DNA of 28,428 bases from IMG/VR virus record IMGVR_UViG_2534682139_000012; one strand, 5' to 3'. Positions 3,611 through 5,904 of this stretch are shown here, piece by piece; position 1 is the first letter of the stretch, and every line of letters starts with the position of its first letter. The position numbers and the translations under genes are program-made. This DNA is from a virus (Duplodnaviria > Heunggongvirae > Uroviricota > Caudoviricetes). Below the pieces are notes generated by a model. The model was not told the origin of the DNA. It made no database searches and worked only from the letters and a program-made list of their open reading frames with translations.

Positions 3611-3961
3611 ATGAAAAAAAACGCTAATAATCCATACTCCAAATTTCGTAATGGCGTAGAACGCCATGTACACCACGTCGCTACCAGTGCATCACGTAGT
3701 AACAGTCGCTATAACCTGAACGAGACGCACGCAACACCGGATGGCCACGCTGTAAAACAAATCGGCGAGCATGCCTGGCTGATTGAGAAAGCTGGAATCG
3801 TGGTCCACAAATGCCCACGCAATCCGTTTACCGGAAACCGCATTTTTGCATTGAACTGCGGCGACAATCACTTCGGGCAGGATTTCACATTATACGAAGC
3901 ACTTCGCACGGTTGATCGTCTGCTTCGCGGGCAAAGTTTTATTAAACAGGCTGATTTATAA
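3611..3961 (+). CDS. Hypothetical early-operon protein
   Basis: 116-aa ORF, same strand and tightly packed with neighbours; no family recognised. Confidence 0.5.
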   Translation: MKKNANNPYSKFRNGVERHVHHVATSASRSNSRYNLNETHATPDGHAVKQIGEHAWLIEKAGIVVHKCPRNPFTGNRIFALNCGDNHFGQDFTLYEALRTVDRLLRGQSFIKQADL

Positions 3962-3971
3962 CAGGTGCTTT

Positions 3972-4250
3972 ATGACCAAAGAGCATGCACAAGGTGTATT
4001 TATCCGTTTTATTGATTTTCGCGGTGAACTGTTATTACGCGCATCAGCTATTGATGGAGTCGTCCCATCAGAAAAAAATGCAGCTACTTACGTTTATCTG
4101 AACGGCACGCGCCTGACCGTAGAACTTCCGTACCAGACTGTACACGAAATCATTAGCGAAGCTGAAAAGGCACGTCAGGTTAATGGCGATAAACCCTATA
4201 TCGAAATTATCTGCATGGATTCAGAAGCTGAAATTCAGAAAGCAGATTAA
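3972..4250 (+). CDS. Hypothetical early-operon protein
   Basis: ORF starting MTKEHAQGVFIRF at an internal ATG of the tracked ORF, with an RBS-like CAGGTG upstream; no family recognised. Confidence 0.5.
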   Translation: MTKEHAQGVFIRFIDFRGELLLRASAIDGVVPSEKNAATYVYLNGTRLTVELPYQTVHEIISEAEKARQVNGDKPYIEIICMDSEAEIQKAD

Positions 4251-4261
4251 AGGGTGTTGCA

Positions 4262-4504
4262 ATGGACAAAGAATATAAAACACTCATCAACAAAGCACTT
4301 GAGCGTTTTTATTTTCGCTTAAGCGCATCAGGCGTTCATGCTGAACGTGCAGCCCGTGACTCATTGACCAGGGCAATCCGGAGTCTGTATGACGTGGCTT
4401 TTTACGCTGATGATCTGGATGCACTTAACGAACTTTCCGAGCTGATCTGTGCCGCAGAATGCGGAGAACATATTGAACCGTATAAGCTGGGGAATATCGC
4501 ATGA
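4262..4504 (+). CDS. Hypothetical early-operon protein
   Basis: 80-aa ORF; stop overlaps the next start (ATGA). Confidence 0.5.
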   Translation: MDKEYKTLINKALERFYFRLSASGVHAERAARDSLTRAIRSLYDVAFYADDLDALNELSELICAAECGEHIEPYKLGNIA

Positions 4505-4614
4505 GTATATTTATCTCATGGCTTGTTCTGATTATTTCGGTGGCCTGCGCCATTGGGATTATGCGAATTATTAATTCAGTGAAAAAGATCGAGCGTTTTT
4601 TCTCTGATGAATAA
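4501..4614 (+). CDS. Small hydrophobic membrane peptide (37 aa), translationally coupled to the upstream gene
   Basis: MSIFISWLVLIISVACAIGIMRIINSVKKIERFFSDE read directly from the sequence; ATGA overlap with the upstream stop; below the ORF-track size cut-off. Confidence 0.3.
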   Translation: MSIFISWLVLIISVACAIGIMRIINSVKKIERFFSDE

Positions 4615-4707
4615 CGATACAAATAAAACATCAAATTAAATAAGAAAACGTGAAAACCATCCGTATTAACGGAGGTATTCGCACACGCAAATAACGGAGA
4701 TACAAAA

Positions 4708-5118
4708 ATGCACGCAAAAGAAGAAGGTATCATCAGAGCACTGAAAGAAATTTCAAAGATGGAAAGCGAAGTAGCGAAAAAAGCCGTGGCCAATGCTCAC
4801 ATGGACGTCGCAACCCACACAATGATAGTCGCAAAAGTCACGGCAGAGGCTGCCAAAATCATCGAAGAACAGGGTGTGGAACTTGCGCTTCTCAAAACTA
4901 AACCAGTCACCGGACTGGATTTATCTGACACCGGACGCCTTATTTACACTATTGGCTCGGAGCCACAGCGATACACCATTATCGCCGGATTACAGAACAA
5001 ATACCTGATCACTCCTCACCCCATAAGGGAATCAACGCTTCTGACAAATCTCCGCCTGATAGAGCGCTCTCAAGTTGCATTCATTGATGACGCCCGACAC
5101 ACCGTATTTAACGCATAG
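4708..5118 (+). CDS. Hypothetical early-operon protein
   Basis: 136-aa ORF with GGAG RBS; preceded by a roughly 90-bp AT-rich spacer containing a tandem TAACGGAG(G/A)TA motif. Confidence 0.55.
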   Translation: MHAKEEGIIRALKEISKMESEVAKKAVANAHMDVATHTMIVAKVTAEAAKIIEEQGVELALLKTKPVTGLDLSDTGRLIYTIGSEPQRYTIIAGLQNKYLITPHPIRESTLLTNLRLIERSQVAFIDDARHTVFNA

Positions 5119-5141
5119 GGTTACTGGACAAAGGGGGTGCA

Positions 5142-5345
5142 ATGGCAATTAAGCATTTTCCCGTCGTTCGCTTTACCTCCAGAGGGCGCGAATACGAGGT
5201 CGACGAACGCCTGATTACCACTATCGACAAACATCGTTCGGAAAAGGATGCACACCACATCTACCTCACTGACGGTACTTACTTCTGCGCCACCAACGTG
5301 GCGCGGGTGAATCTTATCCGACAGGTACAGGAGCCACGCAGATGA
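5142..5345 (+). CDS. Hypothetical small protein
   Basis: 67-aa ORF with strong RBS (AAGGGGGTG); stop overlaps the next start. Confidence 0.5.
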   Translation: MAIKHFPVVRFTSRGREYEVDERLITTIDKHRSEKDAHHIYLTDGTYFCATNVARVNLIRQVQEPRR

Positions 5346-5608
5346 CCATTCTGGACTACATCGCTACTCATCCGGGTTGTAGCGGCGGAGAGATCGCCGC
5401 AGCACTGAATACTCCAACCACAGCCATTAATGCTGAGTTACGCCAACTTTGGCGCGGCGGCTTAGTCATCAGAACAAACCGCAGCACAGGTGGTCGCGCT
5501 CGCAAAACTGGAGGCCAGGCTTCTTACCACGTAAACCCGATGCCGTTCGGGTGTAGCAATCCACTTACTCACATGTTTAACCAGCTACTAAAGGAAGCCA
5601 GAACATGA
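5342..5608 (+). CDS. Putative winged-helix DNA-binding protein
   Basis: 88 aa; MTILDYIATHPGCSGGEIAAALNTPTTAINAELRQLWRGGLVIR looks like a wHTH; RBS CAGGAG. Confidence 0.5.
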   Translation: MTILDYIATHPGCSGGEIAAALNTPTTAINAELRQLWRGGLVIRTNRSTGGRARKTGGQASYHVNPMPFGCSNPLTHMFNQLLKEART

Positions 5609-5904
5609 GCACCATCAACCACCAGAAGCTACGCGAACTGGCATTTGCCCTGCAACGAATGGCAACGCCTCAAAAATTACTGGCATTTCGCGCAATGCTC
5701 TCGCCGTCTGCTGTGCTGGCACTGCTGGATGAGCTGGAGCACGCCAGAACCACGGCTCCTGCCATTCGCCTGACACTCCATCATGAAATCGCTGATTTCT
5801 GCGCGACGTTGGAGGCACCAGGCGAACCGGAAACGCCGGAAGCAATACAGCAAGAGCTGCTGCAACGCATTGACAAGGTTTTTGATTTTTTTCTGAACCA
5901 GTAA
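5605..5904 (+). CDS. Hypothetical early-operon protein
   Basis: 99-aa ORF, RBS AAGGAAG, ATGA overlap with the upstream gene. Confidence 0.5.
   Translation: MSTINHQKLRELAFALQRMATPQKLLAFRAMLSPSAVLALLDELEHARTTAPAIRLTLHHEIADFCATLEAPGEPETPEAIQQELLQRIDKVFDFFLNQ

Follow-up and report, generated by a model that had tools for sequence, protein, structure and literature searches.

What do the eight small genes packed between the Cox-like gene and the replication region of this phage element do? The window analysed, a stretch of 28,428 nucleotides, contains P2-type portal, terminase, capsid, tail, Ogr and A genes, which establish the phage context, and positions 3611–5904 are filled by exactly eight plus-strand open reading frames (ORFs) of the ORF list, referred to here as g1 to g8. 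An earlier note had described about eight tightly packed, translationally coupled small ORFans downstream of a Cox-like gene and had put them forward as candidate anti-host or anti-defence proteins. We find that the genes are real and tightly packed and that translation is coupled in part; what suggests an anti-host or anti-defence role is the position of the block.

Occurrence of the element and layout of its early region

The element is a P88-like (Xuanwuvirus, P2-family) prophage of Escherichia coli, and of a common type. RefSeq annotates the identical eight coding sequences in an E. coli O103:H2 chromosome whose identity to it is 100%. Among 5426 complete E. coli genomes, 1462 (~27%) carry the DNA of the block, and the block is present in phage P88 and in 13 further phage records, so that the word ORFan was overstated. 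The homologue families are restricted to P88-like elements of the Enterobacteriaceae. The eight genes are conserved parts of an early operon, already present in public annotation as proteins with unknown function, and the finding is ordinary prophage dark matter. Because P88-like prophages are carried in about a quarter of complete E. coli genomes, with O103, O121, O45 and ST131 among the strains concerned, the eight proteins rank among the more frequent uncharacterised phage proteins of a major pathogen.

A consensus scan identified a promoter-like site on the plus strand, TTGATA-18-CAAAAT at 3096–3125, as the candidate early promoter Pe. It is bracketed by an operator-like 19-nt inverted repeat (3075–3093 and 3110–3128) and, as we infer from the gene arrangement, would have the divergent repressor gene on one side and the first plus-strand gene on the other. 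The latter (3163–3369, plus strand) opens the early operon and encodes an Arc-like ribbon-helix-helix protein (phrog_3431, 'Arc-like repressor', E = 9.8e-29), with weak RHH matches in Pfam too. It is followed by the Cox-like excisionase/repressor gene (3386–3589, plus strand), whose recognition in the earlier note is borne out by a match to phrog_575, 'Cox-like excisionase and repressor' (E = 1.2e-27). Next come g1 to g8, the isrK and C4 RNAs, a derepression protein, a 129-aa gene and replication endonuclease A. The isrK-like RNA (5973–6047, plus strand; Rfam RF01394, 62.8 bits, gathering score 50) ends in the first strong intrinsic terminator 3' of the block, a hairpin at 6027–6042 followed by a T run. 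The downstream edge of the block is the known isrK/C4 RNA-antirepressor module.

From the Cox-like gene to g8 the intergenic gaps are 21, 10, 11, −4, 93, 23, −4 and −4 nt, with ATGA overlaps at the g3/g4, g6/g7 and g7/g8 junctions. The good ribosome-binding sites reported earlier hold for g2 through g8, which are preceded by Shine–Dalgarno-like motifs, but not for g1, where the motif is weak in the present lineage; other lineages have GGAG there. A tiny ORF at 3594–3614, considered as a possible translational relay from the Cox-like gene to g1, was set aside: it is lineage-specific, its place being taken in other lineages by a normal Shine–Dalgarno sequence. A terminator scan of the block gave no convincing intrinsic terminator ahead of 6027–6042, and an Rfam search within the block at E ≤ 1 found no RNA. 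As judged from the layout, a single transcription unit for the block is plausible.

The eight genes and their conservation

On the evidence of sequence conservation, all eight ORFs are real genes and not chance. Their lengths and start codons are preserved across 80 related viral contigs, pairwise dN/dS values of 0.12–0.45 over the eight genes indicate purifying selection, and the variation among alleles lies mostly at third codon positions. The sizes reported earlier, 67–136 aa with an additional hydrophobic peptide of 37 aa, agree with the ORF list. Seven of the eight genes belong to PHROG families, the exception being the peptide gene, g4.

Comparison of 72 related loci resolves the block into three sections: a conserved head, comprising g1, g2 and g3, the last translationally coupled to g4; a cargo slot; and a tail of coupled genes g6, g7 and g8. 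In this sample, which was picked for the presence of g1 and is skewed toward close relatives, g1, g3, g4 and g6 are each found in 69–72 of the 72 loci, g7 in 59, g8 in 48 (at ≥70% coverage) and g5 in 32; the frequency of g1 is by construction, since the loci were selected for it. The genes g2, g7 and g8 are missing from some contigs, and g2 to g8 are replaced entirely in three loci. The replaced block of L041–43 has a phrog_2549 member and then, again, a small membrane peptide. Other accessory cargo in the slots of relatives includes an SPFH lipoprotein, a Dam methylase, a ParE-like toxin and DUF4406. Paralogy within the block was considered, g2 and g6 being alike by eye, and discarded: all hhalign probabilities are ≤1.6%.

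The head begins with g1 (3611–3961, plus strand), which encodes a basic protein of 116 aa (pI 9.7) that belongs to Pfam DUF4761, scoring 214.6 bits (cut-off 27) over positions 1–105 of the 105 in the profile. Its Arg-rich N-terminus is disordered yet conserved and precedes a domain of five strands and one helix, for which fold searches of the PDB and BFVD returned no structural neighbour. A zinc site at His66/Cys68/Cys83/His87 was rejected, as Cys83 is not conserved. The second gene, g2 (3972–4250, plus strand; phrog_3800, E = 2.5e-58), encodes an acidic protein (pI 5.0) of 92 aa from its ATG. Its N-terminal motif QGVFIRFIDFRGELLLRASAI is invariant in the alignment, its dN/dS is 0.18, its 108 homologue clusters are all enterobacterial, and a profile search of the PDB gave no match. 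About 15% of allele clusters are frameshifted into a second frame within g2 (ORF 4183–4278), yet this frame is not under selection, because variation hits its second codon positions.

The third gene, g3 (4262–4504, plus strand), encodes an acidic protein of 80 aa that belongs to Pfam DUF4754, with a score of 181 bits (cut-off 27) across the full profile (positions 1–80 of 80). No other gene of the block is as well conserved: its median identity is 97.5% and its dN/dS 0.12, and it is found in 69 of the 72 loci; a tblastn search of 50,697 phage records gave matches in 14 Xuanwuvirus-type records only. Overlapping it by ATGA is g4 (4501–4614, plus strand), the 37-aa peptide, a single hydrophobic helix with a charged C-terminal tail and a GRAVY of +1.16. 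Its dN/dS is 0.27 and its length is preserved in 30 of 33 alleles; searches of Pfam and PHROGs gave no family match. In the divergent relative L091, whose DUF4754 gene has clearly diverged further, that gene is followed, with the same coupling, by one for a 41-aa peptide visibly similar in sequence to g4, and a head of DUF4761, DUF4754 and membrane peptide is retained there. The pattern of a type I toxin, with its own promoter and an overlapping antisense RNA to control translation, does not describe g4, which is coupled to g3 and lies in a block devoid of Rfam RNAs. There is a promoter-like match on the opposite strand inside g4, at 4585–4558.

On its left, the variable cargo slot is bounded by an A-rich spacer of 93 nt (4615–4707, plus strand). 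In loci without g5 the distance from the start of g4 to the start of g6 is about 200 nt, and other loci have unrelated genes of 105–109 aa in the place of g5. The cargo in the present element, g5 (4708–5118, plus strand; phrog_9338), encodes 136 aa and is found at 50–100% identity where it occurs, other genes substituting for it elsewhere. Its dN/dS, 0.45, is the highest in the block. At the N-terminus the protein has a helical hairpin, of which several allelic types exist, and its C-terminal domain is conserved; in the AF2 model helices 3–28 and 32–64 have pLDDT values >95 and the C-terminus is poorly modelled. Structure models were available for two of the eight proteins and are partly confident, with mean pLDDT values of 69 and 71. 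The g5 homologues with a named source come from E. coli and Shigella, and many further matches are metagenomic.

The tail opens with g6 (5142–5345, plus strand; phrog_3459), whose product is a basic protein of 67 aa. It has a dN/dS of 0.14, is found in 69 of the 72 loci and has just 16 representatives among 1.84 billion proteins; a lone distant match to a repeat protein of 1016 aa, which shares a short motif only, was judged uninformative. ATGA overlaps join g7 (5342–5608, plus strand; 88 aa, phrog_1687) to g6 on one side and g8 on the other. Residues 2–53 of g7 match positions 9–61 of the Pfam MarR_2 profile with 29.1 bits, a marginal pass of the cut-off of 27, and its best sequence match in the PDB is the winged-helix protein YhgG/FeoC (E = 0.095). 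MarR regulators are some 140–160 aa long and have extra dimerisation helices. In g7 the winged-helix part alone aligns, without the N- and C-terminal dimerisation helices of the full-length architecture, and on this alignment the fitting term for the predicted protein is minimal MarR-type winged helix, not MarR regulator. Allelic forms of 81 and 88 aa occur. A functional link between g6 and g7 was considered from the fusion family phrog_19053 and dropped, the sole fusion observed (L018, 148 aa) resembling a frameshift product.

The last gene, g8 (5605–5904, plus strand; phrog_4144, E = 3.3e-62), encodes an acidic helical protein of 99 aa. Like the lambda-type Ead/Ea22-like proteins, it has an N-terminal motif (residues 25–51, '...SPSAVLALLDELE...') that is common to Pfam Ead_Ea22 and several such PHROGs, but it is much shorter than typical members. 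Its Ead_Ea22 score, 22.8 bits over 27 aligned residues, lies below the cut-off of 27, and its matches to Ead/Ea22-type PHROGs span the N-terminal 50–60 residues only.

Comparison with P88, 186 and P2

The direct orthologues of the block are gp04–gp10 of P88, a phage of the same type, in which they occupy the same operon position in the same order with protein identities of 76–98%. They are, respectively, a DUF4761 protein, a hypothetical protein, a DUF4754 protein, a membrane protein, a second hypothetical protein, a winged-helix protein and an Ead/Ea22-like protein. P88 is without g5 and, unlike the present block, carries a membrane protein and an SPFH lipoprotein after gp10. Its immunity module differs as well, with other C and Cox types, and a recombination boundary falls immediately upstream of g1. 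P88 is an inducible lytic phage (PMC5285337).

By gene order the block belongs to the P2-family early accessory genes, which lie on the same strand between cox or apl and A. Phage 186 likewise has small same-strand genes (fil, dhr and CP79–CP84) between apl, for an excisionase/repressor, and A, so that for 186 the earlier note is right to place host-takeover genes at this position. According to the annotation of the 186 record, over-expression of fil blocks cell division, dhr inhibits host DNA replication and most of these small 186 genes are non-essential. The likeness is one of position: the present block has no counterpart of the DUF2732, DksA-like zinc finger, exonuclease, DUF5405 and PAPS reductase genes of 186, and tblastn of the block proteins against 186 positions 22900–29000 gave a best E of 0.7, with no homology to Fil or Dhr. 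In P2 the same cox-to-A position is held by orf78, B and orf80–83, which belong to other families. Pfam and PHROGs gave no counterpart in the block of the replication gene B, tblastn against P2 returned the A-gene match alone, and comparison by eye of the P2 and 186 early proteins with those of the block revealed no resemblance.

Searches of Pfam, PHROGs, NCBIfam, PADLOC and the PDB (sequence and profile), together with fold searches, assigned none of the eight proteins to a structural, replication or enzyme family; assignment of all of them to structural or replication families was the outcome that the earlier note had named as fatal to its reading. The best E for g1, g2, g3, g5, g6, g7 and g8 against the PDB (sequence and profile) is 0.027, the PADLOC defence-protein HMMs gave no match below E 0.007 and none that is credible, and deep homologue searches with g1, g2, g5 and g6 retrieved close enterobacterial relatives only. 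As to the term ORFan, it stands in that sequence, profile and fold searches gave no characterised relative, but not in the strict sense, given the above-threshold Pfam matches of g1, g3 and, marginally, g7, the sub-threshold Ead/Ea22 match of g8 and the PHROG families of all but g4. A literature search on DUF4761, DUF4754, the RefSeq accessions and Xuanwuvirus/P88-like phages found no functional study, and no search of any kind linked a gene of the block to an anti-host or anti-defence role.

Proposed role of the block

We tentatively favour, from gene position, the reading that the block may modulate host processes early in lytic growth, a form of host takeover like that of fil and dhr at the equivalent position in 186. 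By its layout the block is the accessory middle section of an early lytic operon; when the repressor is lifted, g1–g8 would be transcribed as one message, with translation partly coupled. The eight proteins are 37–136 aa long, have no catalytic domain and are limited to the P88-like lineage; most likely they are small non-enzymatic modulators that would act through binding rather than catalysis. The predicted winged helix of g7 would bind DNA, g4 would insert into the inner membrane along with its coupled partner g3, and g1 would contribute its conserved Arg-rich arm and its small domain; g5, with its several hairpin types, occupies a swap slot. The near-universal g1, g3, g4 and g6 may have conserved targets, and the apparently dispensable g2, g5, g7 and g8 may be exchangeable extras. 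If some of the proteins are inhibitors of division, replication or immunity, they would provide new small-protein tools and new folds.

That g3 and g6 are nearly universal and have a very low dN/dS would be explained equally well by a housekeeping or regulatory role internal to the phage. It is possible, if somewhat unlikely, that the conserved genes g1, g3/g4 and g6, together with g7, act in the programme of the phage itself and do not attack the host, for instance in the lysis–lysogeny decision (compare 186 CII and lambda CIII), in read-through of the isrK terminator for expression of A, or as an aid to rolling-circle replication. The strong constraint on g1, g3, g4 and g6, the putative DNA-binding domain of g7 and the arm of g1, of a type used by nucleic-acid binders, are in keeping with such helpers. 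Moreover, the replication genes lie 3' of a strong terminator that has to be passed, and the 186 record mentions anti-terminated terminators within the early operon. Against this, the searches showed no resemblance of the proteins to CII, P2 B, P2 orf80–83 or any regulator or replication family. In addition, g7 is absent from 13 of the 72 loci and g2–g8 are replaced wholesale in three, so that at least these genes are probably not essential.

Within the host-directed reading a more specific proposal can be framed, which we regard as doubtful: that DUF4761, DUF4754 and the coupled 37-aa peptide form an undescribed early effector set with which P88-like phages disable a target conserved among enterobacteria, for example the division machinery or a defence that is membrane-associated or based on nucleic acids, and that the swappable g5 is an arms-race counter-defence. 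The division into conserved and swappable parts sets a priority for tests, with g3/g4 and g1 for a conserved target and g5 and its slot-mates for strain-specific counter-defence.

That one or more genes, chiefly g5, inhibit restriction, abortive infection or nucleases acting on rolling-circle ends is distinctly unlikely. The swap slot of g5, its patchy presence, its several N-terminal helix types and its top dN/dS would suit anti-defence, but the latter value still denotes purifying selection. Relatives hold a Dam methylase, a classical means of restriction escape, in the same region; the libraries searched (Pfam, PHROGs and the defence-protein HMMs of PADLOC) yielded no match to a described family of that kind. 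DNA-mimic anti-restriction proteins of the Ocr/ArdA type have a strongly acidic surface and a pI of about 4 or lower. The acidity of g2, g3 and g8 (pI 5.0–5.5, net charge −4 to −5) points in that direction but is mild and, on these values, does not look mimic-like.

It is quite improbable that some of the genes, such as the g3/g4 membrane pair, are morons for conversion or exclusion, expressed from the prophage to protect the host against superinfection. Superinfection-exclusion factors are commonly small membrane peptides, the block has a lower GC content (0.476) than the late region (0.548), and an SPFH lipoprotein lies nearby in relatives. However, these genes are within a repressor-controlled early operon and translationally coupled to their neighbours, and a scan gave no promoter-like site on the plus strand upstream of g3, g4 or g5 and no terminator after them. 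Finally, that some of the ORFs are not genes, above all g4 for want of a Pfam or PHROG match, is hardly credible, as the length of the peptide is conserved among alleles, its dN/dS is 0.27 and it recurs with the same coupling in a divergent relative, and the other seven belong to protein families and are under purifying selection.

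Layout and coding status of the early block

The interval 3611–5904 is occupied exactly by eight plus-strand open reading frames: g1 (3611–3961, 116 aa), g2 (3972–4250, 92 aa), g3 (4262–4504, 80 aa), g4 (4501–4614, a hydrophobic peptide of 37 aa), g5 (4708–5118, 136 aa), g6 (5142–5345, 67 aa), g7 (5342–5608, 88 aa) and g8 (5605–5904, 99 aa). The earlier note's description of small, packed genes downstream of a Cox-like gene is borne out by RefSeq, which has the identical eight CDS, and by assignment of the preceding plus-strand gene (3386–3589), a Cox-like excisionase/repressor, to phrog_575 (E 1.2e-27). 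The early operon opens with an Arc-like gene (3163–3369, plus strand; phrog_3431, E 1e-28), and a promoter-like site at 3096–3125 lies within a 19-nt inverted repeat between this gene and the divergent repressor gene. In the identical genome, RefSeq annotates, in place of the Arc-like gene, a hypothetical protein of 45 aa from the other strand (approximately 3177–3314); this is likely a mis-annotation.

Starting from the Cox-like gene, the intergenic gaps are 21, 10, 11, −4, 93, 23, −4 and −4 nt. Translational coupling, noted previously for the block, is supported in part, three junctions (g3/g4, g6/g7 and g7/g8) being ATGA overlaps. As for ribosome-binding sites, g2 to g8 have Shine-Dalgarno-like motifs upstream, whereas that of g1 is weak in the window, with GGAG at the same spot in other lineages. 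On the plus strand, no convincing intrinsic terminator was found through the block before the hairpin at 6027–6042, the terminator of an isrK-like RNA, and the arrangement of the block genes within the early region is operon-like. Neither a promoter nor a terminator of its own was found for g5, which is a cassette inside the operon rather than an autonomous moron.

Every allele of each gene was extracted from 80 viral contigs encoding a g1 relative. ATG starts and ORF lengths are kept across the alleles, variable sites are enriched at third codon positions, and pairwise Nei-Gojobori dN/dS values for g1–g8 are 0.26, 0.18, 0.12, 0.27, 0.45, 0.14, 0.19 and 0.21, respectively. The 37-aa length of g4 is constant in 30 of 33 alleles. 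Judged by their sequences, all eight ORFs are genes. In about 16 of the 108 g2 homologue clusters, the frame shifts into an overlapping 31-codon ORF (4183–4278), giving a basic instead of an acidic C-terminus. This ORF was considered as a second g2 product and rejected, as its substitution pattern is that of an alternative frame not under selection; the frameshifted forms are thus tolerated mutants.

Protein families and their reach

The view that these are ORFans of no family proved too strong. The g1 and g3 products belong to Pfam DUF4761 (214.6 bits) and DUF4754 (181 bits), g7 narrowly exceeds the 27-bit threshold for the MarR_2 winged helix (29.1 bits), and each protein except g4 has a PHROG family, seven in all. 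None is a family of known function, the PHROGs being functionally uncharacterised apart from the MarR-type one of g7. A match of g8 to Ead_Ea22 over 27 residues (22.8 bits) is under the 27-bit threshold, and NCBIfam and PADLOC searches gave no credible match.

Sequence and profile searches of the PDB with all the proteins but g4 returned nothing significant, the best match for g7 being the winged-helix protein YhgG/FeoC (E 0.095). An AlphaFold2 model of g1, built on a 57-sequence alignment, has five strands and a C-terminal helix in residues 40–110 (pLDDT 81–88); residues 1–32 are disordered in the model, yet Arg-rich and conserved. The block proteins have no similarity to Fil or Dhr of phage 186, inhibitors of cell division and host replication, respectively, nor to P2 orf78–83, and pairwise comparison excluded paralogy among the eight.

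The g1 family comprises 144 clusters among 5.8 billion proteins, each with an identity of at least 60% and, apart from one record labelled Vagococcus, enterobacterial. For g2 (108 clusters) and g5 (73 clusters), all organism-named matches are enterobacterial, and scanning all 1.84 billion representatives with HMMER yielded only 16 for g6. Among 185,579 species-representative genomes, g1 was found in 3; tblastn against 50,697 phage records located g3 in 14, each of the Xuanwuvirus type. By these searches, the block is specific to the P88-like lineage. Public annotations of phages and genomes already list its products as DUF or hypothetical proteins, and seven of its genes are gp04–gp10 of phage P88; we found no functional literature on its families or on P88-like early genes.

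Conserved and exchangeable genes

We compared 72 loci spanning g1 to the replication endonuclease gene A; they were chosen on g1, whose frequency is therefore set by construction. The genes g3 (median identity 97.5%), g4 and g6 (median identity 97%) each occur in 69 loci, g2 in 67, g7 in 59 (as two allelic forms), g8 in 48 and g5 in 32 (identity 50–100%). Thus g1, g3, g4 and g6 are nearly universal, and g2, g5, g7 and g8 are exchangeable. The architectures run from a head (g1–g4) through a first slot and a tail (g6–g8) to a second slot, which precedes the isrK/C4 RNAs. The first slot holds g5, unrelated genes of 105–109 aa, or nothing; the second may be occupied by an HTH protein or by a membrane protein together with an SPFH lipoprotein. 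The block and the immunity module meet at a mosaic boundary directly upstream of the g1 start.

In three IMG/VR loci (L041–L043), g2–g8 give way to 4.4 kb of other genes, which encode among others a ParE-like toxin domain, a Dam methylase and DUF4406. The first of these genes belongs to phrog_2549, as g3 does, and a membrane peptide of 61 aa comes next. In the divergent relative L091 (Logan SRR33623564_57), DUF4761 and DUF4754 are retained along with a 41-aa peptide coupled by ATGA. By eye, this peptide is close to g4; its DUF4754 partner is far more diverged. Retention of DUF4761/DUF4754-type genes and a membrane peptide, with the remainder replaced, marks the early region as a place where accessory genes are exchanged. 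The replacing cargo in these divergent elements also includes an Rv2179c-like exonuclease.

The 3.9 kb around the block is 100% identical to chromosomes of several E. coli O103:H2 and related Shiga-toxigenic strains, and 88–93% identical to phages of Xuanwuvirus (Peduoviridae, P2-family), Escherichia phage P88 among them. Of 5426 complete E. coli genomes, 1462 contain DNA resembling the block, and in 435 of these the match spans 80% or more of the 3.9-kb query. An intact copy of the element adjoins yecA/tyrP and has the complete P2-type gene set (integrase, repressor, Cox-like, replication endonuclease A, portal, terminase, capsid, tail and Ogr).

Possible roles and neighbouring modules

The block is an uncharacterised set of accessory early genes as in P2-family phages, and its proteins are small, lineage-restricted and, by every test available, non-enzymatic. 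Their expression would begin when repression is lifted, and they would work by binding, g7 to DNA and others to protein or nucleic-acid targets; g4 would reside in the membrane together with g3, to which it is coupled. The earlier note's observation holds; its interpretation, that these are anti-host or anti-defence proteins, is supported in part only. Host-directed takeover is our tentative first choice, because the block shares the position of 186 fil and dhr. Somewhat less probable is a role in the phage's own regulation or in aiding its replication, an option favoured by how strongly g3 and g6 are conserved, by the Arg-rich N-terminal arm of g1 and by the isrK terminator, which has to be passed if A is to be expressed. 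Anti-defence, with g5 as the main candidate, is unlikely, and exclusion expressed from the lysogen more doubtful still. The block is of value because it is prevalent among pathogenic E. coli and because its division into conserved and swappable genes provides priorities for testing.

Downstream, 5916–6439 looks like an RNA-controlled antirepressor module of the P1 c4/ant or Gifsy-1 IsrK type (PMC4825925), situated between the accessory and replication genes of a P2-family phage. It contains the isrK-like RNA (5973–6047, plus strand; 62.8 bits), a C4 antisense RNA (6083–6170; 78.5 bits), both above the Rfam gathering score, and a gene of the Pfam 'Derepression' family (6227–6439), after which come a 129-aa gene and A. 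A 21-nt inverted repeat (5920–5940/6033–6053) flanks isrK, and 6135–6148, inside the C4 match, is complementary to 6174–6187, just upstream of the 'Derepression' gene. A 205-aa ORF (5916–6533) overlapping both RNAs is probably non-coding; at the equivalent position, overlapping the same RNAs, phage record PV468777 has the note 'similar to ash family protein'.

In the minus-strand integrase gene (770–1633), only residues 1–235 match the intact 333-aa integrase, and the reading frame then enters an IS3-family element (transposase orfB, 1–888; ALIL frameshift pseudoknot, 1–72). Since the C-terminal third is lost, this prophage copy is probably unable to excise. Between integrase and repressor, the minus strand encodes a DUF2511 protein with a hydrophobic N-terminus (1639–1986) and one of 216 aa that has a hydrophobic segment at its C-terminus (2016–2666), candidate lysogen-expressed conversion genes because they share the repressor's orientation. 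In the region at approximately 9830–11100 (10734–11901 in L001 and 670–1945 in L090, two related loci), A is followed by genes for an actin-like segregation protein of ParM type and for a plasmid partitioning/stability protein, which form a predicted plasmid-style partition module within an integrated P2-family prophage, and then by a frameshifted Ead/Ea22-like gene.
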